DNA of 32,000 bases from Candidatus Kuenenia stuttgartensis (GCF_900232105.1 NZ_LT934425.1:2460001-2492000), one strand, 5' to 3'; positions 3,603 through 21,330 are shown, counted from the first letter of the stretch. Numbers and translations: made by a program. Notes: generated by a model from the letters alone, not told the origin.

Positions 3603-3604
3603 AT

Positions 3605-4444
3605 ATGCTTTCTTCCTTAGATATCGAAAAAAAGATACGGGCATCATATATCATTGGAGACATAGTCGGTGTTATGAAAGCATATGCCGGAGTCACAATG
3701 AGGAGAACAGAGGATCTTGTTCAGAATATAAGGGCATATGAAAAAAATATGCTTTTGGCAATGGCCGATATCATAACGCATTATCCTGGAATTTCATTGA
3801 AGGAACAAAGTAAAGGGAAAAAAATTCTCGTGGTCTTCGGTTCCTCGCAGGGGTTATGTGGTTCCTTTAATGAAAAAATGGTTGATGTCGTTTCTTCTGT
3901 AATTACCGGCAATGATATCCTGTTTGTTATAGGGAAGAGATTAAAATCGTCTTTTGAATTAAAACATGTACCTTATGAAGATTACAGCGATTCCGTAGCG
4001 AGCATTAACGGTATACGGCCAGCTTTAAAAGAGACTGTTTCGAAAATAATGAATATTTACAAAAAGGAGGAATACTATAAGCTTACCTTTGTCTTTACCT
4101 ATATTTTTGAAAAAAAGGCTGAAATTTCTGTGGAACAAATCCTCCCTCCTGATATTAATAAAGTAAACGCTTTAAGCCCAACCAGAATTCCACCGTTTAC
4201 CTACCTTAAACCAAAGATTATTTTTAATAAAATCTTAGAAGAATTTTTATTTATCAGTCTTTACCGATGTTATATGGAGTCGCTCAGAAGCGAGAACTGG
4301 TATCGGCTGAGAAGCATGGACGGCGCATCAGAAACTTTAAAAAGACAGCTCTCGAACCTTAATTCTGTTCAGATGTACACCAGACAGGAAGAAATTACGG
4401 AAGAGATGCTTGAGATACTGGGAAGCGGGATGTTCTATAAGTGA
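3605..4444 (+). CDS. atpG: ATPase F1 subunit gamma
   Basis: 279 aa. The N-terminal helix (IEKKIRASYIIGDIVGVMKAYAGVTMRR) and C-terminal helix (QEEITEEMLEILGSG) fit the gamma coiled-coil ends. It is the last gene of the operon, 2 nt after atpA. Confidence 0.8.
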   Translation: MLSSLDIEKKIRASYIIGDIVGVMKAYAGVTMRRTEDLVQNIRAYEKNMLLAMADIITHYPGISLKEQSKGKKILVVFGSSQGLCGSFNEKMVDVVSSVITGNDILFVIGKRLKSSFELKHVPYEDYSDSVASINGIRPALKETVSKIMNIYKKEEYYKLTFVFTYIFEKKAEISVEQILPPDINKVNALSPTRIPPFTYLKPKIIFNKILEEFLFISLYRCYMESLRSENWYRLRSMDGASETLKRQLSNLNSVQMYTRQEEITEEMLEILGSGMFYK

Positions 4445-4512
4445 TACGAAGAGAGTCTGTTGTAAAAACCATTTTATTTTTTGAAATAAATATTTATTCT
4501 GCTTTCTATCTG

Positions 4513-4665
4513 GTACATCGTTTCGTTAAAATGCGTACGTAAAAAAATGTCATTGCGATGAGTGGAGCGACTAAGCAATCTCTTGTTCCAAAAGGACTTA
4601 AGATTGCTTAGCTGTTGCTCACAATGACGGTATCAATGTAGATTTTTAATGAAACGCTATACTAG
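4513..4665. repeat. 153-nt hairpin repeat, copy 1 (partner at 20157-20309)
   Basis: Near-identical to 20157-20309. It contains a long inverted repeat at 4550-4627: TCATTGCGA..GCGACTAAGCAATCT / AGATTGCTTAGC..CACAATGA. Confidence 0.85.
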
Positions 4666-4678
4666 CCAAGGAGGAACT

Positions 4679-5470
4679 ATGAACCACCCTGATAGACCAA
4701 TTGCTGCTGAACCCGCTTATCATAATCAAATATTTCTAGACAGCGACGACGGAAGGCCTCTTCGCATCCTGGCCGAGTACCTTGAACCTCTTTACCGGCT
4801 TCGGCGGGAAGGGATTCAGGACACAATTGTTTTTTTCGGATCTGCAAGAATGAAGGAAGACGGGGCGCTCGGACAGTACTACAAAGATGCTCGCCTGTTG
4901 GCGCAGCTTCTGACCGAATGGTCATGCGGCCTTTCCGGTTCAAGGCGATTTGTGATCTGTACCGGTGGAGGCGGCGGCATTATGGAAGCGGCAAATCGAG
5001 GCGCTGTGGATGCAGGTGGTAGCACTATCGGACTCAACATAGGTCTGCCTCACGAACAGCGCCCTAACCCTTACGTCACCCCATCGCTCTTATTTGAGTT
5101 TCACTACTTTTTCATGCGCAAACTATGGTTTACGCATTTGGCACGGGCACTCATTGTGTTTCCTGGGGGATTCGGGACGCTGGATGAGTTTATGGAGATG
5201 CTAACACTGGCTCAGACGCAAAAGCTTGACCGGGACATTCTCATTTTTCTCTACGGCTCGGAGTATTGGAAAGAAGTGATCAATTTCGATTCGCTCGTGA
5301 AGCATGGGATGATCGACAGGAAAGACTTAAATCTTATTCATCACGTAGACGATGTTCAAACAGCATTTGAACTGCTCAAAAATCGCCTGCCGAAAGAAAA
5401 AGAAGCGGTTTGCCCCGCGATCGCTAAGGCGAAGTTTTCAAAATGTCGAATTAAGGAGGATGCACGATGA
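4679..5470 (+). CDS. LOG-family (TIGR00730-type) nucleotide-binding protein / putative nucleotide 5'-monophosphate nucleosidase
   Basis: Motifs GGGGGIMEAANRGA and PGGFGTLDEFMEMLTLAQT (PGGxGTxxE). I prefer the ATG at 4679, which follows AAGGAGG. The track start at 4649 lies inside the repeat, and the same bases recur at 20292 with no gene behind them. Confidence 0.8.
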   Translation: MNHPDRPIAAEPAYHNQIFLDSDDGRPLRILAEYLEPLYRLRREGIQDTIVFFGSARMKEDGALGQYYKDARLLAQLLTEWSCGLSGSRRFVICTGGGGGIMEAANRGAVDAGGSTIGLNIGLPHEQRPNPYVTPSLLFEFHYFFMRKLWFTHLARALIVFPGGFGTLDEFMEMLTLAQTQKLDRDILIFLYGSEYWKEVINFDSLVKHGMIDRKDLNLIHHVDDVQTAFELLKNRLPKEKEAVCPAIAKAKFSKCRIKEDAR

Positions 5471-6935: not shown

Positions 6936-6992
6936 ATGAAGTCGGAAGAAAAATATCTCCTCGCTGTGAATGGTGGCTCTTCCAGCATCAAG
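6936..6992 (+). pseudogene. 5' remnant of an acetate/propionate kinase gene, cut off by a repeat block
   Basis: MKSEEKYLLAVNGGSSSIK matches the N-terminal phosphate-1 motif (N-x-GSSS-x-K) of acetate kinases. Homology stops where duplicated block 6989-7777 begins. The frame ends 8 codons later. Confidence 0.35.
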
Positions 6993-7199
6993 TTATTCAT
7001 AAGTACCGCAATATAATAAGTTACACATATAATATCCATGTAACAGAGAGGGACGGAGTCCAGGCACTGTTTTTCTTTTTACCAAAACGAGTGATATTGA
7101 CATAGCTTACGGCGACAAGGAGTGTAAGGGACATTATCTTATAGAAGAAGAGATTCGGAAGCTTCCGATCATCGTATCGGCGTGAAGAATATTGTCTTT

Positions 7200-7349
7200 G
7201 ATGTAGAGAGTAAGATGTCATCCTGATTTTTAATAAATATTGCATGCTTGTCCGCTTGTCAGCCTGTTTTGACCTTTGACCGCTCACTGCCAACTGTCTA
7301 TTATCTAATCAACCATTTAACGTCTTAACGACTCAACCGTTCTAATGCA
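7200..7349 (+). repeat. R element copy 1 (about 150 nt, precedes heptamer array)
   Basis: GATGTAGAGAGTAAGATGTCATCCTGATTTTTAATAAAT...CAACCGTTCTAATGCA is shared with 16985-17134 and 17988-18146. Confidence 0.8.
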
Positions 7350-7370
7350 GACCTCTGACCTCTGACCTTT
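7350..7370 (+). repeat. heptamer array, 3 units (GACCTCT type)
   Basis: gacctct gacctct gaccttt, directly after R element copy 1. Confidence 0.7.
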
Positions 7371-7413
7371 GCCAGTTTTCCGCCTTACTTTTTATAAATG
7401 GGGAATGTGCTAT

Positions 7414-7678
7414 ATGCCTATTAAATATGATATAGAAATACCAGAAAGAGTGATAAAAGCGCTTGGTTTGCGTGAAAGTGAAGTAAGTGAAACGCTAAAA
7501 AAAGAACTTTCAGTTTATTTTTTTTGAAAAAAAACTTTTAAGTTTTGGTCAGGCAAGACAATTTTCAGGGTTATCAGTATGGGACTTTCTGGAATTTTTA
7601 AGAGAAAGGAAAATCCCTTTGCATTATGATTTGGCTGAGTATGAGGAAGATTTAGAAACAATCAGGGAATTATCATAA
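7414..7678 (+). pseudogene. UPF0175-family antitoxin, frameshifted copy
   Basis: Same sequence as 17248-17511, but the T-run before GAAAAAAAA has 8 T here versus 7 in the intact copy. This gives ...LSVYFF* and a shifted frame. Confidence 0.8.
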
Positions 7679-7777
7679 TGCCTGTTGTTATCTCCAAAGG
7701 CTGTGTATAAGGAAGTTGTTGTAGAAGGAAGAGGAAAACAGGGAGCAAATGTAATAGCGGAGGCATGTAAAGAATGG
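7678..7777 (+). pseudogene. DUF3368/PIN-like toxin, remnant with internal deletion and 3' truncation
   Basis: Starts ATGCCTGTTGTTAT like 17511. It lacks about 80 nt present in the intact copy (17531-17610 region), and homology ends at 7777. Confidence 0.75.
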
Positions 7778-8705: not shown

Positions 8706-10403
8706 TGCGTTTAGCTAAGTATTCTCATCGCAAGCTCTTGGGACTATTCCAGCAGAGGATGTCGTTTTAACTCTGGACAGTATCAAAGAAGCTTTGGGAA
8801 CGACTTCAAAAGCAACGGTTTTCAGGAAGCTAAAATCGCTCGGACATCGTGCGAGTTATTCCCATGCAGGGCAAATACCATACACTGGATACACTTGCAA
8901 GCTATAATAAATATGGCATTTGGAGTTTCAATCAAATATATTTTTCTCAACAAGGAAGTCTTGTATATACTCTCGAGGCCATCATTAATAAATCTCATGG
9001 AAGGTTGTTTTGCCTCGGAGCTTCAAACGCTGGTACATGTGCGAGTCTTTAATGCACTGACTCAATTAGTGGTATCTGGAAGAGTCTTGCGCGAGCAGAT
9101 TGCCGGAGAATATTTGTATATCTCCAAGGTGTTAGGTACGGATCAACTCGCCAGACGTAAACAGTCAATCATGTTGTGTGCTTGTAAGGAAGAAAATGTA
9201 TTAATTCCCGGCTTTGGGAGTGAGGCGGTTACGGATTGCCTGCAGACATTTCTTTCCTATACTTGATGAAAGGCAGAAACGGCTTTATCTTGGTTTAGAA
9301 TCAATGAAACTGGGATATGGCGGCGATTTAAGACTTTCACTGCTAACCGGCATAAATGTAAAAACAATTGCCAAGGGGCGTCGGGAACTTTCGAGTAAGA
9401 ACATTACACCGGGACGGATACGTAAGGTTGGTGCAGGTCGTTCTTCGATTAAAAAAAAACTGATGTGGTAAAACTTCTTGAAGAATTGATGGAGGGCGAT
9501 ACTGCAGGAGACCCAATGGGTAAAGGAAAAATATGGACGAGAAGAAGCACACGTACTCTAAAAAAAGAATGCGGTGATAGAGGTGTAAGCGTATGTGCAA
9601 CAACAGTTAGTAAGCTTCTTAAGGACATGGATTATTCTCTGAGAGTAAATCGCAAAACGATAGCAGAGACACGTCATCCGGACCGTAATAGACAGTTTGA
9701 AATTATTAATGAGACAAAAAAGTATTTTGAAGATTCTGGTCAGCCAATAATCAGTGTTGACAGTAAGAAAAAGGAATTGATAGGTAATTTCAGAAATGAG
9801 GGCAAGGCGTGGACAAAAATAGTAAATGAAGTTTTGGCCCATGATTTTCGTTCTCAGGCAATTGGTGTTGGATGTCCGTTTGGTATCTATGAATTGCTGA
9901 CTAATTTAGGGACAGTTATTGTTGGTACGTCCTATGACACACCGGAATTTGCAGTCGAGTCAATTAAGATTTGGCTGGATGAATTTGGTTGGAAGAGGTA
10001 TCCATGCGCAAAAGAACTCCTTATTCTTTGTGACGCAGGAGGGAGCAACGGATTTCGTCCCCGGTTGTGGAAATATGCGCTTTATCAAAATATTTGTAAA
10101 GTTTACGGACTCTCCATCAGGATTTGCCACTATCCCTCAGGAGCATCAAAATGGAATCCGGTAGAACATCGTCTGTTTAGTTTTATCAGTAAAAATTGGG
10201 AGGGGAATCCTTTGAGGTCTTATGATGTTATGCTAAGTTTAATTGCTGGCACTACAACAACAGCGGGTCTTCTCGTACAAACCATTCTTAACGAGAAAGA
10301 ATACCAAAAAGGAATCAAAATCACTGATGACCAAATGAAAGAAATAAACATAAACAAACACAGTGTCTTGCCAGATTGGAATTATACAATTTCACTTAAC
10401 TAA
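8706..10403 (+). mobile_element. ISAzo13-type (Rhodopirellula DDE transposase family) insertion sequence remnant with multiply frameshifted ORFs
   Basis: 9465..10403 encodes the DDE domain (ISVDSKKKELIGNF, ILCDAGGSNG, YPSGASKWNPVEHRLFS). The N-terminal part ILDERQKRLYLGLESMKLGYGG lies in another frame (9214..9471). A further upstream winged-helix-like part (TVFRKLKSLGHRASYSHAGKYHTLD) is split over two more frames. Element ends were not identified. Confidence 0.75.
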
Positions 10404-10726: not shown

Positions 10727-10953
10727 TCGGAGACGGAACCTCATTTGACAAAAAATTTTTATAGAACATTCTAATATTGAAGCGGATGTTCTTTTACGTG
10801 TTCTTTGTGATGACCCTCCAGTTGATGCGATTGAAGAATCAGGAGGGGTAATCGTGAGTTACGAAGAAGATAGAGAACCTGTCAGTGTGGCTCAAGTTCC
10901 GGGGCACCATACATAATTATTGACTTCATTATTAAAATAGTTAAGAGGTGTTC

Positions 10954-11583
10954 ATGTCCGGAATTGCTCGTGTGGTAGTTCCGGAAACGCCACATCATAT
11001 TACTCAACGAGGAAGTCGACGTATGCAGGCATTCTTCTGCGACTAGGATTGTGAGGCTACATAGACTTGACGTTTCAGTGGTGTAGGCGCTCAGACATTG
11101 AAATATGGGCATATTGCTTGCTGCCAAACCATGTACACCTGATTAGGTTCCGCCCTCTGAAAATGCGCTTAGCCAGGCGATTGGAGAAGCGCATCGACGC
11201 TACACACATCGCGTAAATTTCCGGGAAGGCTGGAGAGGCCACCTGCGGCAAGGACGTTTTGCCTCTTTCCCAATAGACAAAACCCATTTGTGTTTAGCCT
11301 AGTGGCACATTTTGCCTGTGCGGAATACAGGCAGGAATGCCTGTACCACCCTTGCAATAAATTTTATTATTCATCTTCCGAAAACCTTATTTTTTTGACT
11401 ATATTTACAAAAAATCGGGAATGCACCCTTGCTGGGAGAGATGATCGTCTTGTGCATGGAGAGCCGTTGCTTGAGATGTTTGGCAAGTGGGACGAGTTTC
11501 TTTCCAGAGGTCTATCGGAAGGAGAAGTTGAAAAGGACCGATGTCATGAGCGAGCCGGAAGACCTCTTAGCGCCGACAGTTTT
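10954..11583 (+). pseudogene. RAYT / IS200-like Y1 transposase, dead copy A
   Basis: MSGIARVVVPETPHHITQRGSRR..., with a TAG at the FFCD* position, 1-nt deletions, and a central segment replaced by foreign repeats (11300-11427). The 3' end is cut by the MITE at 11584. Left inverted repeat GGGGCACCATAC at 10901-10912. Confidence 0.8.
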
Positions 11584-11724
11584 GGGAGCATTCCCGATTT
11601 TTTGTAAGTGTTCATGGAGTTGGGGCAAAACAACCCTGACAGGGTTTCAAACCCTGTCAGGGTTAACACTACTGTACGTTTTATTAAAACATGGCGGAAG
11701 TCACAAAAAATCGGGAATGCACCC
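11584..11724. mobile_element. 141-bp MITE, copy A
   Basis: Terminal inverted repeats GGGAGCATTCCCGATTTTTTGT ... ACAAAAAATCGGGAATGCACCC. Central 33-nt palindrome at 11632-11664. The left flank is GACAGTTTT. Confidence 0.8.
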
Positions 11725-11835
11725 CTACAAGACCTCTAAACCAATCTCAAAAGAAAGGGCTCAGGACACTTTATCTGATGCTGTTTATTTTGTAAATGCC
11801 ATAATGAAATATCTGGAAGATGATATGAAGAAATC

Positions 11836-12012
11836 ATGAAAGCTGTGCATCCGGATAAGGCATACAATCTTGAAATGCCGATTGAAATGTTCGCGGGCGA
11901 AGGAGATGTGGTTTTTGCTATCAGCAGTTCCGGCAGATCCGAGAACATCCTCTGCAGGGTTAGGGTAGGCATATCTAAAAAGTGCAGAGTAATTACACTG
12001 TCTGAAGTTTGA
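11836..12012 (+). pseudogene. SIS-domain (GmhA-like sedoheptulose-7-P isomerase) gene fragment
   Basis: A 58-codon frame: ...FAGEGDVVFAISSSGRSENILCRVRVGISKKCRVITLSEV*. It resembles the GDVL-x-ISTSGNS-x-N...G..VI-LTG core of SIS/GmhA proteins. It lacks both the N- and C-terminal parts. Confidence 0.35.
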
Positions 12013-12173
12013 GCAACAAAGGCCTCTTCCTTTTGAATACAAAAGCGTCAAGCTTGATTGTGAACATAGAATTGATATTTATAGTTGAAGAAAAAAGGTT
12101 ATCCTCAACAAAGGCTCTTCCTGGGCCAAAATTTTAATAGCAAGCCTCTTATAATCAGTCTGGATTATGGAGT

Positions 12174-12635
12174 ATGATAAAAGTTTATTTTGATAACTGC
12201 GTGTATAACAGACCCTTTGATGATCAGGGCAATGAGAGGGTTTTGATTGAGGCAAGGGCTTTTTATATTATTCTTAAGTGGATTGAAGATGGGAAAATAA
12301 CGAGTATCAACTCCGATGCCCTTGAATATGAAAACGGTATGACGCCTGATCCTGACAGACGAATCAGGATTAAGACATACCTTGCCATGACAAAGGCGCA
12401 TGCAAAGTTTTCTGAATCTCTGGCTGAGAGGGCGAAAGAGATTGTTGGTTTAGGTATGAGGGGGATGGATGCCGTGCACATAGCTATGGCAGAGCATGAG
12501 AATGCCGAATACTTTGTTACCTGTGATGATGGTATAATAAAAAGAGCCAAAGAATTCTCAGAAATGCTTAGAGTGAAGGTTTGTAGTATATTGAAATTTC
12601 TGGAGGAGGTAATGCAATATGGCGAAGACAATTAG
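12174..12635 (+). CDS. PIN-domain protein (VapC-like toxin candidate)
   Basis: 153 aa with acidic residues spaced like a PIN fold: FDNCV (D7), EARA, MDAVHIAMA, VTCDDGI. Confidence 0.55.
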   Translation: MIKVYFDNCVYNRPFDDQGNERVLIEARAFYIILKWIEDGKITSINSDALEYENGMTPDPDRRIRIKTYLAMTKAHAKFSESLAERAKEIVGLGMRGMDAVHIAMAEHENAEYFVTCDDGIIKRAKEFSEMLRVKVCSILKFLEEVMQYGEDN

Positions 12636-12810
12636 TGAGGTTAAAGAGATAGGATGGGACGCCCTCGTTGAACGCTTAGGAGCAAGCGGCGCAACGCTAT
12701 TCATTTTGGAATACGAAAAAGGTTATGGAGATTACACCAAAGACAGAACAAAGATATTCGACAAAAAACCCCTTGAAGAAATTATAGAAGAAATCAAAGG
12801 AGAGGATTAA
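12619..12810 (+). CDS. small acidic protein downstream of the PIN gene (possible cognate partner)
   Basis: 63-aa ORF overlapping the PIN gene by 17 nt. No recognisable motif. The call rests on position only. Confidence 0.3.
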   Translation: MAKTISEVKEIGWDALVERLGASGATLFILEYEKGYGDYTKDRTKIFDKKPLEEIIEEIKGED

Positions 12811-12862
12811 CATAAAATGAAAGATTCACCTTGCAGCGAAAATAATGAAAGGAGGAGTGAGG

Positions 12863-13018
12863 AATGAACTTACATGAAAGGATATGTTTGGGAAGTCTGT
12901 AATTAAAGGTACTCGTATTACTGTGGAACATATACTCCGTAAATTAGGCGGTGGTATAACTCCTGATGAAATTATCGAAGACCATCCTCATCTAAAAAAA
13001 GGTAACTATTCAGCGTAG
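12863..13018 (+). pseudogene. DUF433-family protein, frameshifted and 3'-truncated
   Basis: MNLHERI then a frameshift, then DMFGKSVIKGTRITVEHILRKLGGGITPDEIIEDHPHLKK (DUF433 core GKPVIKGTRI.V..IL). The end is replaced by the small element starting at 13002. Confidence 0.55.
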
Positions 13019-13107
13019 ACGATACACGGCTCGTTCCCAAACCTTGTACTGAACATAGTGAAGTATCTGTTTGGGAATGCATTTGTTCGAGAAACTCCGG
13101 TTTCTCG
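13002..13107. repeat. small insertion-type repeat (GTAACTRTTCAGCGTA ... AAACTCCGGTTTCTCG), long form
   Basis: Shares both ends with 20096-20157. It has an internal inverted repeat GTTCCCAAAC/GTTTGGGAAT and truncates the DUF433 gene. Confidence 0.6.
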
Positions 13108-13269
13108 CCTGTTTGCTGATAGATAGGGAATAAAATCACAGGGTTAAGACAGTTTGTAATTTGTCAAGTCAGACCCGCACTGGAAACAAAGTTTCCAGTG
13201 CAATTGATAGTTCTGGGGACATCATACATAAATTATTGACTTCATTATTAAAATAGTTAAGAGGTGTTC

Positions 13270-14103
13270 ATGTCCAGAATTGCGCATATGGTAGTTCCGG
13301 AAACGTCACATCATATTACTCAACGAGGAAAACGACGTTTGCAGACATTCTTATGCGACGAGGATTATGAGGTATACATAAACTTGACGTTTCAGTGGTG
13401 TAGGCGCTGGGACATTGAAATATGTGCATATTGCTTGCTGCCAAACCATGTACACCTGATTGCGGTTCCGCCCTCTGAAAATGCGCTTAGTCAGGCGATT
13501 GGAGAAGCGCATCGACGCTACACACGCCGCGTAAACTTCCGGGAAGGCTGGAGAGGACGCCTGTGGTAAGGACGTTTTGCCTCTTTCCCAATGGACAAAA
13601 CCCATTTGTACTTAGCCGCACGCTATGCTGAACTGAATCTGGTGAGAGCAACATTAGTTAAGAAACTGCAGGGGCACCGATGGGGTAGCGCATCCGCGCA
13701 CATTGCTGGGAGAGATGACCGTCTTGTGCCTGTAGAGCCGTTGTTTGAGATGTTTGGCAAGTGGGACGAGTTTCTTTCCAGAGGTCTATCGGAAGGAGAA
13801 GTTGAAAAGGCCCGATGTCATGAGCGAGCCGGAAGACCTCTTAGCGCCGACAGTTTTGGGTGTATTCCCGATTTTTTGTGATTTCCGCCATGTTTTATGA
13901 AACGTTGCAGTAGTGTTAACCCTGACAGGGTTTCAAACCCTGTCAGGGTTGTTTTGCCCCGACTCCATGAACGCTTACAAACAATCGGGAATGCACCCGA
14001 CAGTTTTTTAGTCCAGCTTGAAAATGCTCCTGGAAGAATACTCCATAAGCAAGAATCTGGCCCAAAGAGGTCTCAAAAGGAAAAGAAGCATCTCCAAAAT
14101 TGA
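13270..14103 (+). pseudogene. RAYT / IS200-like Y1 transposase, copy B (least damaged)
   Basis: HUH motif PNHVHLIAV. C-terminal helix AARYAELNLVRATLVKK..HRWGSASAH. In-frame TAA at 13567-13569 where copies A and C have CAA (LW*GRFAS). MITE inserted at 13858-13998. After the MITE the tail resumes (DSFLVQLENAPGRILHKQESGPKRSQKEKK*). Flanking inverted repeats at 13215-13227 and 14104-14115. Confidence 0.85.
13858..13998. mobile_element. 141-bp MITE, copy B, with 9-bp target-site duplication
   Basis: TIRs GGGTGTATTCCCGATTTTTTGT / ACAAACAATCGGGAATGCACCC. Palindrome at 13918-13950. Direct repeats GACAGTTTT at 13849-13857 and 13999-14007. The interior is reverse-complemented relative to copy A. Confidence 0.85.
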
Positions 14104-14197
14104 GTATGGCGTCCCTGAATTCGTCAAAGGTTGATAAGTATGATTGCCTTAGTGTTAATTGACTTGATGGTAATAAAAATTTATTGGAGAAAAAACG

Positions 14198-14401
14198 ATG
14201 AAAACAAAAACCCTTCCATTTGCAAAAGAATTTATAACAGATTCTAAAGGGCACATTACCAAAATAATTATGGATTTTGATGATTATCAACGTTTTCTTG
14301 ATTGGGTTGAAGATGAAGGATTAGTTCTGGCAATGAATGAGGTTGAAAATGAAGCGTCTATGAGCCTGGAAAAGGCATTAAATGAACTTGAAAAGAAATG
14401 A
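14198..14401 (+). CDS. putative antitoxin of the RelE/ParE pair
   Basis: 67-aa acidic ORF (IMDFDDYQRFLDWVEDEGLVLAMNEVENE) overlapping the downstream toxin by ATGA. Confidence 0.5.
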   Translation: MKTKTLPFAKEFITDSKGHITKIIMDFDDYQRFLDWVEDEGLVLAMNEVENEASMSLEKALNELEKK

Positions 14402-14688
14402 AGACGGAGTATATATCAAGTTTTATAAAGGATTTGGGAGCGCTAAAAGGTTCCCATTATTATGAGAAGATTAAAACTATGGTTTTCGAAGATATTCCCA
14501 AATTACCTGATATAGACAAAGTGAAGAATTTAAGAAAGTTAAAAAATAACAAACCATATTACCGGATTCGTATTGGGGAATATAGAATAGGAGTTAGATT
14601 GAATAATAATACACTGGTTTTATGCGTAACACGTAAATATACAGATTTTCGAAATTTGCTCGCCAATAATTTGAAAATTTTCAGTTAA
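14398..14688 (+). CDS. RelE/ParE-family toxin whose 3' end is replaced by an IS630 fragment
   Basis: KLKNNKPYYRIRIGEYRIGVRLNNNTLVLCVTR is the RelE/ParE beta-sheet core. From 14652 on the sequence is identical to the IS630 end at 15445, so the last residues are foreign. Confidence 0.6.
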   Translation: MKTEYISSFIKDLGALKGSHYYEKIKTMVFEDIPKLPDIDKVKNLRKLKNNKPYYRIRIGEYRIGVRLNNNTLVLCVTRKYTDFRNLLANNLKIFS

Positions 14689-14929
14689 AAGAGTAGACAA
14701 TTCATCTGTATACTCGTTAATATTTTTGAAAAAACTTAAACATTTGTTTTTAAACTTCTCATAAGTATCATAATACTTGTTATACAATATTTTCCATAAT
14801 TTGCGAATAGAATTTCCATAATCTTTCAATGAGATTTAAATTGGGCGAATAGGAAGGGAGAAATTTGATCTTTATTCTCGAATTTGCAAGGTATTCTTTG
14901 ACCAACTGACCTGTAATATTTAGCATTAT
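14652..14929 (-). mobile_element. IS630-family element, 3'-terminal fragment (duplicate of 15445-15725)
   Basis: Near-identical to the 3' end of the full copy. It encodes the transposase C-terminus ...YNKYYDTYEKFKNKCLSFFKNINEYTDELSTLLTENFQIIGEQISKI on the minus strand. Confidence 0.8.
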
Positions 14930-14958
14930 TGCACCGTCTTGTGATTAGATGTTTGTAA

Positions 14959-15145
14959 CGATTTTCTTACCAGCGGTCTATCGGAAGAAGAAGTCGAAGA
15001 GGTTCGATGTCATGGGCGAACCGGAAGACCTCCTGGCGCTGACAGTTTTTTAGTCCAGCTTGAAAATGCTCCTGGAAGAATACTCCATAAGCAAAAACCT
15101 GGCCCAAAGAGGTCTCAAAAGGAAAAGAAGCATCTCCAAAATTAA
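14959..15145 (+). pseudogene. RAYT 3' fragment (copy D)
   Basis: Matches copy C 21110-21290 (...EEVEEVRCHGRTGRPPGADSFLVQLENAPGRILHKQKPGPKRSQKEKKHLQN*). The MITE target site GACAGTTTT is uninterrupted at 15041-15049. Right inverted repeat GTATGGCGTCCC at 15146-15157. Confidence 0.75.
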
Positions 15146-15233
15146 GTATGGCGTCCCATGAATTCTCAATAAGTGGGATGTGTCTCCTTTTTCCAAGATA
15201 AAATTAAATAAGATTAACGGGAGGATTAGCTTC

Positions 15234-15444: not shown

Positions 15445-16480
15445 CAGATTTTCGAAATTTGCTCGCCAATAATTTGAAAATTTTCAGTTAAAAGAGTAGA
15501 CAATTCATCTGTATACTCGTTAATATTTTTGAAAAAACTTAAACATTTGTTTTTAAACTTCTCATAAGTATCATAATACTTGTTATACAATATTTTTTTG
15601 CGAAAGAATTTCCATAATCTTTCAATGAGATTTAAATTGGGCGAATAGGAAGGGAGAAATTTGATCTTTATTCTCGAATTTGCAAGGTATTCTTTGACCA
15701 ATTTAGACCTGTAATATTTAGCATTATCAGAGATTATGTAAATAGTACCGGCTTGAGCATACCTTGACTCTATTTCATGGAAAAGCTTTATTGTTGATTG
15801 AGCATTGATGCTTTCATCTTCCCGGATTGTTACTTCAAAGGTTTCTATGTCAATAGCCCGTTTAAATTTATTCTTTTCCTGCCGGTATTAGAGGGTATTT
15901 CCTTCTTTTTGCCTTTCTCTATCCAGCAATATGCAGACGTAGAATTGTGCTGTGGATGAACTCCATCCATAAAAAGTATCTTATCTCCGGGGGCTTTCTC
16001 TTCTTTGAGTTGTTTGTAGTTTTCGATAAATTCTTTTTGTTTTTCAGGGTTTGCTTTGCCTGGAACTATTGTAGTTTTCTTGTAAGTAAAGCCTAATCTA
16101 TCGAGGGTATGTACCATTCCTTCGGGTGTATAGATTTTATTGAATGTCTGTTTTACATATTCAACAATTTCTTTTGCCGCACTATAGTTGTTTTTCCTGA
16201 TATGATCTTTTAATTGTTCTTCTTGTTCGCAGGTGAGTTTTGGCACACAGCCAATATAATTGTCAGATAAAAGCCCGTCAAAACCTTTATCTTTGTATAG
16301 TTTTTCGTAATTCCTGATTGTTTGATCGTCTAACAAGAGCGCCTCTGCTACTTCTTCATAACTCCATCCTGAATCAAGAAGAAGTATAGCTTTGATTCGG
16401 TCGGCATGACGTCTATGAGGCTCTTTCTTATGTGCTTTTTTAAATTCTATTCGGGTTTTTTCACTGAGAAATGGATTCAT
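15445..16480 (-). mobile_element. IS630-family insertion sequence with frameshifted transposase
   Basis: 16480..15845 encodes the HTH N-terminal part (RIKAILLLDSGWSYEEVAEALLLDDQTIRNYEKLYKDKG) and the first D (ILFMDGVHP). The frame breaks at about 15850 (NLNGLLT* versus expected NLNGAIDIET). The remainder (IYIISDNAKYYRSKLVKEY...SYSPNLNLIERLWKFFRKK) lies in another frame to 15444. The upstream end and TIRs were not identified. Confidence 0.8.
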
Positions 16481-16984
16481 GCAGAATTTAATACTCTAGA
16501 AACAATTCAAATGCAAGAAAAAAACAGGTTCTTCTAAAAATAAATGCTTTTTACTATCGCTACTCAATTTGTCCCAGACCTCAGACTTCAACTATTTAAC
16601 AAGTTTTCCCATTTCTGGATTGACAATCCCCGAAGAAGTGTTTATTATGCCAAACGTTTGAAATTCTAAACGTTTAACAATTCAAACAATTCTTTACTGC
16701 CACGCGCATAGGTAAACGGACTGTAAGGGTGACGTCTAACATGGAGCGACAATCTCGTTTCACTGGCAGGCGGGCAAGTTATTCATAAGTACCGCAATAT
16801 AATAAGTTACACATATGATATCCATGTAACTGAGAGGGACGGAGTCCAGGCACTGTTTCCTTTTTACTAAAACGAATGATATTGACATAGCTTACGACGA
16901 CAAGGAGTGTAAGGGACATCACCTCATAGCGGAAGAGATTCGGAAGCTTCCGATCCTCGTATTGACGTGAAGAATATTGCCTTT

Positions 16985-17134
16985 GATGTAGAGAGTAAGA
17001 TGTCATCCTGATTTTTAATAAATCTTGCATGCTTGTCCGCTTGTCAGCCTGTTTTGACCTTTGACCGCTCGCTGCCAACTGTTTATTATCTAATCAACCA
17101 TTTAACGTCTTAACGAATCAACCGTTCTAATGCA
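16985..17134 (+). repeat. R element copy 2
   Basis: Same about 150-nt sequence as 7200-7349 and 17988-18146. Confidence 0.8.
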
Positions 17135-17169
17135 GACCTCTGACCTCTGGCTTCTGACTTCCGATCTTT
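17135..17169 (+). repeat. heptamer array, 5 degenerate units
   Basis: gacctct gacctct ggcttct gacttcc gatcttt. Confidence 0.7.
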
Positions 17170-17247
17170 GCCCACTTACCTCGAATTTGAACTATTTACC
17201 CTTTGCCAGTTTTCCGCCTTACTTTTTATAAATGGGGAATGTGCTAT

Positions 17248-17511
17248 ATGCCTGTTAAATATGATATAGAAATACCAGAAAGAGTGATAAAAGCGCTTGG
17301 TTTGCGTGAAAGTGAAGTAAGTGAAACGCTAAAAAAAGAACTTTCAGTTTATTTTTTTGAAAAAAAACTTTTAAGTTTTGGTCAGGCAAGACAATTTTCA
17401 GGGTTATCAGTATGGGACTTTCTGGAATTTTTAAGAGAAAGGAAAATCCCTTTGCATTATGATTTGGCTGAGTATGAGGAAGATTTAGAAACAATCAGGG
17501 AATTATCATAA
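17248..17511 (+). CDS. UPF0175-family antitoxin
   Basis: MPVKYDIEIPERVIKALGLRESEVSETLKKELSVYFFEKKLLSFGQARQFSGLSVWDFLEFLRERKIP has the typical UPF0175 layout. Its stop overlaps the toxin ATG (TAATG). I prefer the ATG at 17248 to the track start at 17203. Confidence 0.7.
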   Translation: MPVKYDIEIPERVIKALGLRESEVSETLKKELSVYFFEKKLLSFGQARQFSGLSVWDFLEFLRERKIPLHYDLAEYEEDLETIRELS

Positions 17512-18014
17512 TGCCTGTTGTTATTTCCAATGCTTCTCCATTAATAGGACTTGTGGGAATTGAACAACTGCATATCTTAAGAAAATTATGGTCGGAAATA
17601 GTTATTCCTGAGGCTGTGTATAAGGAAGTTGTTGTAGAAGGAAGAGGAAAACAGGGAGCGAATGTAATAGAGGAGGCATGTAAAGAATGGATAAGAGTTG
17701 TTTCTGTGAAAAACAGGCCAGAAGTTGAAGTATTGCAGACCATTCTTGATGAAGGCGAAGCCGAAGTTATAACGCTGGGACAGGAGATTAAAAAAAGCAT
17801 TCTTTTACTTGACAACAGAGAGCCACGTAATTTTGCAAGGACTGTTAATCTGAAAATGATTGGCACAGTTGGTGTTATTAGATTTGCATGGACGAAAGGC
17901 TTAATAAAAGAACCAATCCATGAGATAAATAAGTTACGGTTGAACGGCTTCTGGATAGGCGAGAAACTTATTGAGCAGTTTAAAAAAGATGTAGAGAGTA
18001 AGATGTCATCCTGA
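17511..18014 (+). CDS. DUF3368-family PIN-like toxin
   Basis: 167 aa: VVISNASPLIGLVGIEQLHILRKLWSEIVIPEAVYKEV...DEGEAEVITLG...LLLDNREPR. DUF3368 is the usual partner of UPF0175. The last 9 codons come from R element copy 3. Confidence 0.7.
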   Translation: MPVVISNASPLIGLVGIEQLHILRKLWSEIVIPEAVYKEVVVEGRGKQGANVIEEACKEWIRVVSVKNRPEVEVLQTILDEGEAEVITLGQEIKKSILLLDNREPRNFARTVNLKMIGTVGVIRFAWTKGLIKEPIHEINKLRLNGFWIGEKLIEQFKKDVESKMSS

Positions 18015-18146
18015 TTTTTAATAAATCTTGCATGCTTGTCAGCTTGTCAGCCTGTTTTTGACCTTTGACCGCTCACGGCCAAACTGCCAACTGTTTATTA
18101 TCTAATCAACCATTTAACGTCTTAACGACTCAACCGTTCTAATGCA
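17988..18146 (+). repeat. R element copy 3 (overlaps 3' end of the PIN-like gene)
   Basis: Same sequence as copies 1 and 2, with an extra 8 nt (GGCCAAAC). Confidence 0.8.
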
Positions 18147-18174
18147 GACCTCTGACCTCTGACTTCAGGCCTCT
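18147..18174 (+). repeat. heptamer array, 4 units, immediately upstream of the four-helix-bundle gene
   Basis: gacctct gacctct gacttca ggcctct. Confidence 0.75.
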
Positions 18175-18181
18175 GGATAAT

Positions 18182-18562
18182 ATGAAAATTGAATCAGCTA
18201 AGGATTTGCGGGTGTATCAGAAAGCTTATGCACTTGCTATGGAACTGTTTGAACTTTCGAAAGAATTCCACTGTGAGGAGCGTTTTGCTCTTACAGATCA
18301 AATACGCCGATCATCAAGATCAGTCTGCGCCAACCTGAGAGAAGCTTGGGCAAAAAGGCGTTACCCTGCACATTTTGTAAGCAAACTTACAGACTGTGAC
18401 GGAGAAAACAGTGAAACAGATACATGGTTAGACTTTGCACGAGACTGCAACTACATTACGGACAAACATCATAAGGAGCTGACGTCTATTTGCTTAGAAG
18501 TTGGAAAAATGCTTGGGAGTATGATCAATAATCCAAAGCCGTTTCTGATCTCCGCCCCCTGA
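18182..18562 (+). CDS. four-helix-bundle protein (23S rRNA intervening-sequence protein family, Avd-like)
   Basis: 126 aa: LRVYQKAYALAMELFELSKEF..EERFALTDQIRRSSRSVCANLREAWAKRRYPAHFVSKL..DGENSETDTWLDFA is the family signature as I know it. The last 5 codons and the stop lie inside the downstream heptamer array. Confidence 0.8.
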   Translation: MKIESAKDLRVYQKAYALAMELFELSKEFHCEERFALTDQIRRSSRSVCANLREAWAKRRYPAHFVSKLTDCDGENSETDTWLDFARDCNYITDKHHKELTSICLEVGKMLGSMINNPKPFLISAP

Positions 18563-18630
18563 TCTCTGACCTCTGACCTCTGACCTCTGGTCTCTGGTCT
18601 CTGATCTCTGACTTCTGACCTATGACCTCA
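18547..18630 (+). repeat. heptamer array, 12 units (consensus GACCTCT)
   Basis: gatctcc gccccct gatctct gacctct gacctct gacctct ggtctct ggtctct gatctct gacttct gacctat gacctca, counted by hand. Confidence 0.9.
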
Positions 18631-18681
18631 GATTAAAACCAATTAACGAATCAAAAGATAAATGTTACAGAAAGAGCATCA

Positions 18682-19686
18682 ATGGAAATAATCAATCCAC
18701 ACGACAAATTTTTCAAAGAGACCTTTTCCATAAAGAAAAATGTAATCGATTTTCTCCAGGGAACATTTCCCCCTGAAATTTTGAAAAAGCTGGATTTATC
18801 CACTTTAACACAGGATAATAATTCATATATCGACGAAGAACTAAAAGAACATTTCTCAGACATTGTATATACCTGTTTCTGTAAAGACAAAGAACTCCGG
18901 ATAACCCTTTTATTCGAGCACAAGAGTTATGCCGTAGCATGTCCGTATCTACAGTTGATGAAATACCTTTTAAAGATATGGGAAGCAAACAGCAAGCAGT
19001 CACAAAGGCTCATGCCGGTAATTCCGGTGATATTGTATCATGGCAAAGATGCGTGGAAAGTCAGGAGATTCAGAGACTATTTTGAAGGGATAGACGAGGT
19101 ATTCTTTAGATTTATACCGGAATTTGAATATCTGCTGACGGATCTGAGTTGTTATAGTAATGAGGAAATAAAGGACAGGGCATTTAGAAGGGTATCCCTT
19201 CAAATAACCATGTTATTAATGAGGAATATATATAATGACAAAATTCTGGGAGACAAGCTAAAGGCATTCTTTGAAATAGGGAAGCAGTATTTTGAAGAGG
19301 GTGAAGGATTAAAGTTTCTGGAAAGTGTGATCAGGTATTTGTACTATGCGTCGGATATAGAGGAAGAAAGGGTAATAGATACCCTAAAAGAGATATCGGA
19401 AGAAGGAGGTAGATTAAGCATGACAATAGCAGCCAGATTAATAGAAAAAGGCAAAATGGCCGGTAGGGCGGAAGGTAAAGTAGAAGGTAAAGTAGAAGGT
19501 AGAGTAGAAGGCCGGATAGAAGGCCTAAAAGAAGCGATAGAGATTGGTTTGGAGCTAAAGTATGGCGTTGAAGGTTTAAGGCTTCTGGAACGTATCAGTA
19601 AAATAGTAGTAATAGAGAAACTGGAGGCAATAAAAGAGGCGGTGAAAATATCAAAGAATATGGAAGAAATTGAAAAATTGCTCTAA
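18682..19686 (+). CDS. Rpn-family recombination-promoting nuclease / putative transposase (PD-(D/E)xK, YhgA-like)
   Basis: 334 aa. N-terminal PHDKFFKETF, then FSDIVY...LLFEHKS (the D...E-x-K nuclease core). The C-terminal helical region has EGKVEGKVEGRVEGRIEG repeats typical of this family. Confidence 0.8.
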   Translation: MEIINPHDKFFKETFSIKKNVIDFLQGTFPPEILKKLDLSTLTQDNNSYIDEELKEHFSDIVYTCFCKDKELRITLLFEHKSYAVACPYLQLMKYLLKIWEANSKQSQRLMPVIPVILYHGKDAWKVRRFRDYFEGIDEVFFRFIPEFEYLLTDLSCYSNEEIKDRAFRRVSLQITMLLMRNIYNDKILGDKLKAFFEIGKQYFEEGEGLKFLESVIRYLYYASDIEEERVIDTLKEISEEGGRLSMTIAARLIEKGKMAGRAEGKVEGKVEGRVEGRIEGLKEAIEIGLELKYGVEGLRLLERISKIVVIEKLEAIKEAVKISKNMEEIEKLL

Positions 19687-19937
19687 CATGAAAAACTCAT
19701 ATCGTAACAATTTAGCTTGCCGCAGAGAACGCTGGGACTTCGTCGTGAGCTCAATCGAACAATCGCAGAGGTTTTTAGGAGATAAAAACAGAAAATTATG
19801 CAGGTGCCCACGGGTATTTGTTTTCTCCGTGTTATCCGCGCCCTTTACGGTGAACTATTACCTCATATCTTATCCATGAAATATGGAAAAGAACTAAATT
19901 CACTGGTCAACTCATTAGAAAAAAAGACTCGACCGCA

Positions 19938-20007
19938 GACCTCCGACTTCTGCCCTCCGACCCCTGACTTCCGACTTCTGACTTCTAGTCTCTGCCCTCT
20001 GACTTCC
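19938..20007 (+). repeat. heptamer array, 10 degenerate units
   Basis: gacctcc gacttct gccctcc gacccct gacttcc gacttct gacttct agtctct gccctct gacttcc. Confidence 0.85.
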
Positions 20008-20095
20008 GGGTGTATCAGAAAGCTTATGCACTTGCTATGGAACTGTTTGAACTTTCGAAAGAATTCCCCTGTGAGGAGCGTTTTGCTCTTACAGA
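20007..20095 (+). pseudogene. four-helix-bundle gene fragment (codons about 10-39 only)
   Basis: CGGGTGTATCAGAAAGCTTATGCACTTGCTATGGAACTGTTTGAACTTTCGAAAGAATTCC.CTGTGAGGAGCGTTTTGCTCTTACAGA equals 18209-18297. Its 5' side abuts the heptamer array and its 3' side is cut by the small element at 20096. Confidence 0.85.
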
Positions 20096-20157
20096 GTAAC
20101 TGTTCAGCGTAAATATTATCGTTTAATACCGACTTGCTCCCAAACTCCGGTTTCTCG
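20096..20157. repeat. small insertion-type repeat, short form (partner 13002-13107)
   Basis: Starts GTAACTGTTCAGCGTA and ends AAACTCCGGTTTCTCG. It truncates the four-helix-bundle fragment. Confidence 0.6.
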
Positions 20158-20309: not shown

Positions 20310-20453
20310 ATTTAAAAATCCAGTAGATATTAAAACTTTTGTTGCTAATGGTAAAAGGAAGGCCGAAAGCTGAACTGAAAAAGATTCCTTTTAGTTCTGG
20401 GGACACCATACATAAATTATTGACTTCATTATTAAAATAGTTAAGAGGTGTTC

Positions 20454-21290
20454 ATGTCCAGAATTGCGCATATGGTAGTTCCGGAAACGCCACATCATAT
20501 TACTCAACGAGGAAGTCGACATTTGCAGGCATTCTTCTGCGACTAGGATTGTGAGGCTACATATACTTGATGTCTCAGTGGTGTAGGCGCTGGGACATTG
20601 AAATATGTGCATATTGCTTGCTACCAAACCATGTACACCTGATTGGGGTCCGTCCTCTGGAAATGCGCTTAGTCAGGCGATTGGATAAGTGCATCGACGC
20701 TACACAAGTCGCGTAAACTTCCGGGAAGGCTGGAGAGGGCGCCTGTCACAAGGACGTTTTGCCTCTTCCTTAATAGACAAAACCCATTTGTACTTAGCCG
20801 CACGCTATGTTGAACTGAATCCGGTGAGAGCAAAATTAGTTAAGAAACTACAGGAGTACCGATGGAGTAGTGCACCGGCACACATTGCTGGGAGGTGCAT
20901 TCCCGATTTTTTGTAATTATCTGCACAATGTAACACAAGCATACTGCTTGTGATATTTAATACACAAGCTGCCTGCCTATACGGGTTGGCACAGGCATTT
21001 TGCCTGTGCGAAATACAGGCAGGAATGACTGTACCACCCTTGCTGGGAGAGATGACCGTCTTGTGCATGTAGAGCCGTTGCTTGAGATGTTTGGCAAGTG
21101 GGACGATTTTCTTACCAGCGGTCTATCGGAAGAAGAAGTCGAAGAGGTTAGATGTCATGAACGAACCGGAAGACTTCCTGGCGCTAACAGTTTTTTAGTC
21201 CAGCTTGAAAATGCCCATGGAAGAATACTCCATAAGCAAAAACCTGGCCCAAAGAGGTCTCAAAAGGAAAAGAAGCCTCTCCTGAATTAA
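20454..21290 (+). pseudogene. RAYT / IS200-like Y1 transposase, dead copy C
   Basis: Shares the TAG (FFCD*) and the adjacent 1-nt deletion with copy A. A 146-bp insertion sits at 20894-21039. The tail ...GANSFLVQLENAHGRILHKQKPGPKRSQKEKKPLLN* is intact and has no MITE. Inverted repeats at 20399-20411 and 21291-21302. Confidence 0.85.
20894..21039. mobile_element. 146-bp insertion with 9-bp target duplication TTGCTGGGA
   Basis: Direct repeats at 20885-20893 and 21040-21048; copy B has the uninterrupted site. The left end is GGTGCATTCCCGATTTTTTGT (MITE-type TIR). The right end is different, a hairpin-containing ...GCCTGTGCGAAATACAGGCAGGAATGACTGTACCACCC. Confidence 0.75.
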
Positions 21291-21330
21291 GTATGATGTC
21301 CCTGTAATTCCCAATGCTATTGCTGAACTT

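Follow-up and report, generated by a model that had tools for sequence, protein, structure and literature searches.

Two 141-bp elements in the tails of RAYT-like genes of Candidatus Kuenenia stuttgartensis are, very probably, non-autonomous miniature inverted-repeat transposable elements (MITEs) of an ISKra4-type (p-MULT 4) transposon family found across the anammox Brocadiales. They lie within a 32,000-nucleotide stretch of the chromosome (GCF_900232105.1 NZ_LT934425.1:2460001-2492000), referred to below as the window, and are designated copies A and B. We base the assignment on the sequence of their ends, the length of those ends and the mixture of 8- and 9-bp target site duplications (TSDs) in the family, all of which fit. 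The two copies occupy the same position of two related genes in opposite orientations, an arrangement that most likely arose by recombination among repeats and not by a new mechanism.

Structure of the two elements

Both elements are bounded by terminal inverted repeats (TIRs) and enclose a 33-nt palindrome, each at the coordinates given in the initial annotation of the window. The features of the pair and its insertion sites are as follows.

11584..11724, MITE copy A, 141 bp; interior inverted relative to copy B; member of a young, near-identical cohort
13858..13998, MITE copy B, 141 bp; older and diverged, with TSD intact
11584..11607 (+), left TIR of copy A, GGGAGCATTCCCGATTTTTTGTAA; 22 nt identical to the left inverted repeat of a Scalindua ISKra4 transposon
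11701..11724 (-), right TIR of copy A; 0 mismatches across 11703-11724
13858..13881 (+), left TIR of copy B, GGGTGTATTCCCGATTTTTTGTGA; 1 mismatch
13975..13998 (-), right TIR of copy B; 1 mismatch
11632..11664, palindrome at the centre of copy A, 33 nt, composed of two inverted 15-nt units
13918..13950, palindrome at the centre of copy B, 33 nt; + strand identical to that of copy A, centre base C included
13849..13857, TSD left of copy B, 9 bp, GACAGTTTT
13999..14007, TSD right of copy B, 9 bp, GACAGTTTT
11575..11583, 9-mer directly left of copy A, GACAGTTTT; same RAYT position as in copy B, without a right counterpart
15041..15049, empty target site in RAYT copy D, GACAGTTTT
21186..21194, empty target site in RAYT copy C, AACAGTTTT

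Aligned as an inverted pair, copies A and B (141 nt each) are 91% complementary, differing at 13 of 141 aligned positions, in agreement with an earlier estimate by eye of about 90% for their reverse-complementary interiors. The junctions also proved to be as first described: GACAGTTTT is present on both flanks of copy B, the corresponding sites in gene copies C and D are empty, and copy A has no right-hand TSD, its flank CTACAAGACC... being unrelated to the RAYT tail.

The 22-nt sequence GGGTGCATTCCCGATTTTTTGT bounds both elements and matches the window at six places with at most 1 mismatch, against 0 expected. Four of these are the ends already recognised. The other two, at 11407-11428 (-) and 20893-20914 (+), had been overlooked and belong to remnants of a second element, E2, in RAYT copies A and C. 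The conserved terminus extends over about 24 nt (…GTAA or …GTGA). Within each TIR, a small GGGA-GCAT-TCCC hairpin precedes a T-run, and the combination scores as a terminator-like site that faces inward. One reading frame of the TIR encodes GCIPDFL followed by a stop, and insertions truncate host open reading frames (ORFs) with this 7-aa tag (ORFs 11290-11607 and 13591-13881).

The predicted fold of the whole element has an energy of -43 kcal/mol (z-score -9.6) for copy A and -37 kcal/mol (z-score -8.7) for copy B. For the 33-nt core, one 15-bp stem with a 3-nt loop is predicted, not two mini-hairpins; of the nested hairpins proposed earlier, the 33-nt palindrome is present, and the CCCTG-N-CAGGG hairpins assigned to its arms, with a loop of 1 nt, cannot form. 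The element has no coding capacity, and ORFs that read through it (e.g. 11429..11839) are fusions with flanking gene fragments. A search of Rfam gave no relevant match.

A repeat family across anammox genomes

The family was collected by an exact search of genomes, one per species, with an 18-mer from the TIR core, and by a scan of metagenomes with the TIR 22-mer (loci are given L numbers). The genome scan yielded at least 119 TIR-bearing loci, mostly in Kuenenia, Brocadia, Scalindua and a Lake Tanganyika Planctomycetota metagenome-assembled genome (MAG), and the metagenome scan 108 loci. Around two dozen of the genome-scan matches are in unrelated genomes and carry extra TIR mismatches; these look like chance matches. 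A few perfect TIRs in the same scan were on short contigs binned elsewhere, which may be mis-binned.

In the first, genome set, 61 TIR pairs were spaced 90-590 bp apart. Clean TSDs at unrelated sites were identified for 45 non-redundant elements, with a length of 8 bp in 22 and 9 bp in 23. Together with more than 100 TIR loci and an autonomous element with the same ends, described below, these establish the MITE call made from the window. The interiors are highly diverse and assembled from hairpin modules, and the part common to all is only about 24 bp, GGGWGCATTCCCGATTTTTTGTAA. The subfamily seen in the window, with its central palindrome, is present in Kuenenia and Brocadia. Its 141-bp copies occur at unrelated sites with TSDs of their own, for example CTTCGTGA in L030 and AGTCTCGAT in L214, and B. 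pituitae and B. carolinensis have one orthologous subfamily insertion in common.

No TSD was recognisable in 23 of the 69 non-redundant elements with intact TIRs (loci L001-L237), which suggests that exchange of flanks or rearrangement at element ends is frequent in the family. Several MAG contigs end 77-150 bp within family elements.

A target logo, proposed in the initial annotation, was derived from the outward flanks of the 45 insertions. It is close to flat, with at most 0.19 bit per position across the 90 flanks and a faint GTT...A bias. No sigma-70-type promoter was found at a fixed distance in the 90 flanks, where five promoter-like matches lay at scattered offsets and base composition was flat. 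Target choice in the family is nearly random. The searchable literature contained no description of the repeat family or of its likely driver.

An ISKra4-type transposon with the same ends

A search for an autonomous element sharing the TIR, likewise suggested from the window, led to a 2.2-kb ISKra4-type transposon. Two TIR-bounded copies were found in metagenome loci, L180 5-2196 (2192 bp) and L234 210-2418 (2209 bp), both encoding a D12-class N6-adenine methyltransferase (PF02086) and a protein of about 475 aa. This protein scores 254.3 bits on the NCBIfam model transpos_ISKra4 (NF033572, cut-off 205) and 46 bits on Pfam UPF0236, and falls far under the cut-offs of the ISLre2, ISH6 and Mbov_0401 ICE transposase-like models. 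Among named proteins, the ISKra4-family transposases of Ca. Scalindua are closest to it.

Scalindua sp. GCA_031316235.1 contains four identical 2210-bp copies of the transposon at separate loci (L238-L241, element 1728-3937), with inverted repeats (IRs) GGGAGCATTCCCGATTTTTTGTAAAA and GGGTGCATTCCCAATTTATTGTAAAA and TSDs of 9, 8, 8 and 8 bp. A single copy with a 9-bp TSD is present in S. japonica. The MITE termini match one IR of the autonomous element at 21-22 of 22 positions, and the other IR differs more. Farther ISKra4 relatives (57-66% identity) retain related IRs, GGGAGCAT(T/A)CCCAAATTGTTG. The Dam-like D12 methyltransferase gene lies upstream of the transposase gene (L238-L241, L242, L180, L234).

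Guerillot et al. (2014, PMC3942029) characterise the prokaryotic Mutator-like (p-MULT) elements as having IRs of 18-39 bp with a terminal C, together with direct repeats 8 or 9 bp long, and describe their presence in Planctomycetes, in some cases with passenger genes. The available part of the supplements to that study yielded no IR matching the family TIR. Related elements of the IS256, ISLre2 and TnGBS types are reported to transpose through a circular intermediate.

In the mechanism that we propose, an ISKra4-family DDE transposase acting in trans would bind the 22-24-bp terminal repeats (GGGWGCATTCCCGATTTTTTGTAA) and move whatever DNA lies between them. Integration would proceed via a staggered cut of 8 or 9 bp, which would give rise to the TSD.

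No transposase with matching ends had been noted in the window, and this was confirmed: its ISAzo13, IS630-like and YhgA-like genes do not have these TIRs. Among the 119 genome loci there was neither a transposase inside TIR pairs or beside solo TIRs nor a multi-copy ORF family. One candidate for a longer element, the sole long TIR pair with a TSD in the genome loci, turned out to be the window's own 11584-13998.

Several points weigh against the ISKra4 assignment. The L234 element has no TSD. No similarity between the MITEs and the autonomous element extends past about 24-26 bp, so that simple deletion from the autonomous copies found does not account for the MITE. The transposase was absent by tblastn from all Kuenenia and Brocadia loci examined, and the near-identical Kuenenia copies differ at 1-4 positions, which implies fairly recent movement in Kuenenia although no cognate transposase was found there. 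Finally, both mobilisation in trans and the transposition chemistry are inferred.

The family in Kuenenia

Contigs of several NCBI assemblies (GCA_900232175.1 and others) match the window at 99.2-99.9% identity, and the gene lengths of its IS630 (345 aa) and ISAzo13 (295 aa) transposases agree with those tabulated for K. stuttgartiensis. Copies A and B are in an identical state in nine independent assemblies. A comparison of related strains for empty sites, also put forward in the initial annotation, revealed none, both copies being present in every available assembly. Among the 120 best homologues of the transposase, mostly nameless, none was named Kuenenia or Brocadia, and one cluster member was from a Candidatus Brocadiaceae bacterium. 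Ding and Adrian (2020, Table S8) list 38 transposase groups in three K. stuttgartiensis genomes, with no ISKra4 and no IS256 among them (PMC7709395). The Kuenenia copies are probably orphaned and now immobile.

Other movers and other classes of element

The MITEs might have been moved by another Kuenenia transposase that produces duplications of about 8 bp (e.g. ISL3 or ISAs1), with the match to the ISKra4 ends being shared or borrowed. Such an enzyme would fit the recent activity in Kuenenia suggested by its near-identical copies, and the K. stuttgartiensis list includes ISL3 and ISAs1 and no ISKra4 (PMC7709395). However, the TIR and one ISKra4 IR agree at 21-22 of 22 positions, related IRs follow the phylogeny of the ISKra4 transposases, and a mix of 8- or 9-bp TSDs is the signature of p-MULT elements (PMC3942029). 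ISL3 elements, for their part, make duplications of 8 bp. Moreover, no transposase of any kind lies inside the TIR pairs of the Kuenenia and Brocadia loci. We therefore regard another mover as very unlikely.

An origin as REP/REPIN-type sequences served by a RAYT-like Y1 transposase, instead of DDE-type MITEs, is suggested by the position of the elements in RAYT-like genes and by their central doublet of inverted 15-nt hairpins, which resembles a small REPIN and also occurs alone in intergenic DNA. HUH/Y1 transposition (IS200/IS605) leaves no TSD, whereas these elements have 8/9-bp TSDs and long TIRs identical to the ends of a DDE transposon. The host gene reaches 51 bits where the RAYT model demands 80, and all four of its copies are pseudogenes. 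For the 141-bp element as a whole this origin is already contradicted and hardly credible, which leaves the 33-nt core only.

A non-mobile, locally duplicated fragment carried along with the RAYT duplications, the fallback considered in the initial annotation should other copies be lacking or be free of TSDs, would suit the location of both window copies in duplicated RAYT units but is refuted by dozens of copies, which are spread over unrelated loci of several genera and have each a TSD of their own, and has practically no probability left.

Origin of the inverted pair

The pair has to be considered together with the genes in which it is inserted and the sequence to the right of copy A.

10892..11583 (+), RAYT-like (Y1_Tnp) pseudogene copy A; mosaic, its 5' part with copies C and D and its 3' part with copy B
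13203..13857 (+), segment 5' of the MITE in RAYT-like pseudogene copy B; one in-frame stop; tail at 13999-14135
20392-21315, RAYT-like copy C
14958-15170, RAYT-like copy D, truncated in the window and complete in L121
11725..11839 (+), right flank of MITE copy A, 3' part of a HEPN-type toxin gene, cut exactly at the MITE end

The two MITEs are of different ages. Copy A differs from copies at other loci at 1 (L179), 1 (L222), 3 (L214) and 4 (L030) positions, and copy B differs from the same four at 12-14. Relative to the consensus of the young cohort, there is 1 difference in A and 12 in B (binomial p = 0.003). Between A and B, 13 of 141 positions differ in the MITE and 5 of 155 in the adjoining RAYT flank (Fisher p = 0.049). 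The 3' regions of the RAYT genes group as (A,B) versus (C,D), and the 5' part of A groups with C and D.

To the right of copy A, the sequence is 87% identical to an intact MNT-HEPN locus, L247, in an alignment that begins exactly at window position 11725, and CTACAAGAC lies within the HEPN gene of that locus. The 37-aa peptide encoded by the flank, which is too short, gave no match on Pfam. The window segment 11725-12012 consists of the HEPN 3' fragment and a SIS-domain (GmhA-like) fragment; in L247, a groundwater metagenome contig, positions 2003-3316 contain the hldE-gmhA-MNT-HEPN arrangement in intact form, with the same SIS fragment after it.

The initial annotation offered two explanations for the opposite orientations: a strongly preferred target that was hit twice, or an interior flipped by recombination between the TIRs. 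Both are incomplete in view of the near-flat target preference, the absence of a flipped copy among the orthologues compared, and the contrast between a young A and a diverged B. A third history, which fits more of the facts, is our tentative choice, although we hold it at somewhat less than an even chance. It involves one inherited insertion, after which TIR-TIR recombination exchanged the body of A for that of a younger copy nearby.

In this history, a single MITE would have inserted at GACAGTTTT in the tail of a RAYT-like gene, and duplication or conversion of the 3' part of the gene would have passed it to copies A and B. A younger MITE would later have landed near A, in the HEPN gene and in opposite orientation. 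The two left TIRs, direct repeats of about 24 bp, would then have recombined with loss of the DNA between them, fusing the RAYT junction to the young element. Such a deletion would produce in one event the apparent inversion, the loss of the right TSD at the exact breakpoint, the truncated HEPN gene and the youth of A, and we favour this history because it needs the fewest rare events. It is in keeping with the (A,B) grouping of the RAYT 3' regions, the 23 of 69 family elements without a TSD, and the deletion between CACCCTTGC microhomologies in the same set of RAYT copies.

Three observations count against the TIR-TIR deletion. Its predecessor state was found in no assembly. The left TIR of A has young-type bases at both positions (4 and 6) at which that of B differs, which would place the crossover at the extreme edge of the TIR unless these changes are specific to B. 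Also, polarisation of the A/B differences by eye, with more distant members of the subfamily as reference, puts roughly 3-5 derived changes on A plus the cohort and 5-7 on B, so that A may itself be the source of the cohort, which would rescue an in-situ flip.

An independent double hit would have placed two MITEs at the same nucleotide of paralogous RAYT tails as a preferred target, with A later losing its right flank. Separate insertions would predict the different age classes of A and B (1 versus 12 differences). Some ISKra4-group elements are reported to insert at a set distance from sigma-A promoters, on the upstream side, and in both orientations if their IRs are symmetric (PMC3942029), a habit that might in principle yield hits at one and the same nucleotide. 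A TTGAAA box lies 19 nt past the IR end of copy B. However, there was no promoter enrichment at any distance in the 90 flanks (at most 0.19 bit per position), GACAGTTTT poorly fits the weak GTT...A preference, and copies C and D have near-identical sites that are unoccupied. The near-random targeting and these empty sites make two independent hits improbable a priori, and a separate event would be needed to remove the right TSD of A exactly at the TIR end. We judge a double hit unlikely.

An in-situ flip, in which recombination or replication template-switching between the TIRs of a single inherited MITE turned the element round in one RAYT copy, is to our minds equally doubtful. Hairpins with inverted termini are known to promote small inversions. 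The element has a strong hairpin (z = -9.6) and inverted termini of about 24 bp, the left junction is the same in sister RAYT 3' regions, and the polarisation by eye puts derived changes on both the A and B lineages. Set against this, no flip was seen among same-site pairs across assemblies or in the cross-species orthologous pair L080/L085, a comparison of low power. The MITEs have diverged more than their flanks (13/141 versus 5/155, p = 0.049), and both copies have C on the + strand at the centre of the palindrome, where a flip of the whole interior would give G. A flip would also require a second precise event for the exact loss of the right flank of A, and A would have to be the source of the near-identical copies, including one in another Kuenenia species (L030).

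Further candidates were discarded. A single apparent flip was an artefact of palindromic flanks. A composite transposon spanning 11584-13998 (MITE-cargo-MITE within GACAGTTTT) leaves the coincidence in place, as RAYT copy B ends at the same nucleotide inside the cargo. Replicative intramolecular inversion predicts AAAACTGTC, and not GACAGTTTT, to the left of copy B.

Host genes and the E2 element

The RAYT-like genes that carry the MITEs belong to a family of Y1_Tnp proteins of about 225 aa with thousands of intact homologues. A reconstructed 227-aa product scores 42.5 bits on PF01797 (cut-off 23), with HxH (NHVHL) and RRY motifs visible, and 51.2 bits on the NCBIfam RAYT model NF047646, under its cut-off of 80. 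The earlier designation as RAYT is thus right as to the Y1_Tnp domain and overstated beyond it, the genes being four mosaic pseudogenes below the RAYT-model cut-off, with stops or frameshifts in all four copies. RAYT-type genes are normally single-copy, and four pseudogene copies within 10 kb are unusual for genes of this type.

The RAYT-like units are bounded by inverted ends of their own, GGGGACAYCATAC... and ...GTATGATGTCCC, which also flank an intact-length homologue from another sample (L246 1440-2210). Within the window, the GGGGACAYCATAC... motif occurs only at the left ends of units B and C. The closest RAYT homologues are intact or merely frameshifted, and none of them has the MITE in its tail. 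In one candidate, P0005, the reading frame stops at the same codon solely owing to a 1-nt deletion in the T-run, and the site is empty.

Two remnants of E2 lie within the window.

11303..11428, E2 remnant in RAYT copy A, right part ending in the family TIR; 98% identical to L006 4085-4206, L030 5434-5553 and L063 697-812
20894..21039, E2 remnant in RAYT copy C, left part; 9-bp TSD TTGCTGGGA at 20885-20893 and 21040-21048

E2 is a second, longer MITE of the same TIR family. Complete copies are about 285 bp, e.g. L063 528-812 with TSD CTAAAGAAC. In RAYT copy C the right 77 bp of E2 have gone between CACCCTTGC microhomologies; in copy D (L121 ~7139-7190) E2 has lost both sides, and in copy B the site is empty. 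E2 inserted once at TTGCTGGGA and was then eroded differently in A, C and D, a pattern that requires recombination between paralogues or recurrent deletion at the CACCCTTGC microhomologies. Recombination between paralogues and microhomology deletions have clearly shaped the RAYT locus. In L186 and L200, the 5' part of RAYT copy A with its E2 remnant is joined to other flanks; L200, at least, looks like a chimeric metagenome contig.

The palindromic core

The AACCCTGWCAGGGTT doublet that forms the 33-nt core is found alone in intergenic DNA (L007 441-473, L069 6065-6097, L109 7511-7543). It also occurs in a second MITE family with an unrelated TIR, ATCACTTTAGYTTTTTGAAAAA (L009 ~4478-4605, L130 ~1250-1380, L185 ~5270-5400), and a 124-bp subfamily of the ISKra4-type MITEs has a single degenerate core unit. 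Its occurrence in several contexts marks the core as a separate repeat module. That this hairpin doublet is also an independently mobile, REPIN-like module we think rather improbable. If it were self-mobile, perhaps through RAYT-like Y1 transposases, the anammox MITEs would be chimeras of two transposition systems, and their co-location with RAYT-like pseudogenes might not be accidental.

Other features of the window

The MITE-bearing RAYT copies belong to a gene cluster with small members of toxin-antitoxin type at 12174-12810 and 14198-14688, which include a PIN domain, a RelB-like antitoxin and a ParE-like toxin. An ISAzo13-family transposase of 312 aa, with frameshifted upstream fragments, occupies 8895-10403, and a YhgA/Rpn-like Transposase_31 protein 18682-19686. 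A truncated IS630-like transposase (15845-16480, -) adjoins a 100% identical duplication of 152 + 97 bp (14642-14905 = 15445-15701). Assemblies L120-L122 differ from the window in the IS630 region and hold the complete RAYT copy D.

Degenerate heptamer runs, (GACCTCT)n, are present at 17135-17181, 18547-18649 and 19931-20005, and such runs lie just upstream of PF05635 genes (23S rRNA-intervening-sequence / four-helix-bundle) at 18182-18562 and ~20001-20100. A block of about 0.8 kb is repeated 9.8 kb apart (6989-7777 and 16775-17690, 93-99% identity), and part of it has a third copy near 17988-18173.

Significance

The genomes of Kuenenia, Brocadia and Scalindua are unusually rich in transposases and rearrangements (PMC7709395). 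The present analysis gives a name and a likely driver to an abundant repeat family shared by anammox genera. It is an ordinary kind of mobile DNA in an apparently undescribed family, and the understanding of transposition mechanisms is unchanged. For annotators, the 24-bp signature should be useful in masking, in explaining contig breaks and in flagging ORFs that are truncated or fused by a TIR. The family is a clear example of MITEs that look orphaned while their partner lives on in a sister genus, and it documents an ISKra4 transposon with a Dam-like methyltransferase. With one third of the copies apparently having exchanged flanks, the MITEs are also implicated in small-scale genome rearrangement.

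Comparison with known systems

ISKra4 elements (p-MULT 4), as described in PMC3942029, resemble the family in starting with GGG and ending with C, in their IRs of about 24 bp and 8/9-bp direct repeats, and in their Planctomycetes hosts; some members carry passenger genes, as the partner transposon does here. A Dam-like D12 methyltransferase like that of the partner was not found among the passengers named in the available part of PMC3942029. An ISKra4 subgroup described there inserts 13-17 bp upstream of sigma-A promoters, whereas no such targeting was detectable in the flanks of the present family. Unlike ISKra4 itself, the window elements are non-coding and have only the terminal ~24 bp in common with autonomous copies.

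Bacterial MITEs such as Correia of Neisseria, RUP of Streptococcus pneumoniae and Nezha of cyanobacteria are short, non-coding, hairpin-forming, TIR-bounded, multi-copy and flanked by TSDs. They rely on a transposase in trans, which is often absent from the genome that bears them. The present family differs from other bacterial MITEs in its Mutator-like superfamily, with a TSD of 8/9 bp rather than TA or another target, and in its highly modular interior, many unrelated interiors being combined with one TIR.

REP/REPIN-RAYT systems share with the window elements a core formed by a doublet of inverted hairpins, a nearby Y1/HUH transposase-like gene, and the occurrence of the core alone in intergenic DNA. 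In contrast to such systems, the 141-bp element has the TIRs and TSDs typical of DDE transposition, and its Y1 genes are multi-copy pseudogenes below the RAYT cut-off.

In eukaryotes, MITEs derived from Mutator-like elements (MULEs) have Mutator-superfamily ends and TSDs of about 8-9 bp, and non-autonomous copies outnumber autonomous ones. Compared with these, the family described here lives in bacteria, has much shorter TIRs and gives no sign of having captured gene fragments.

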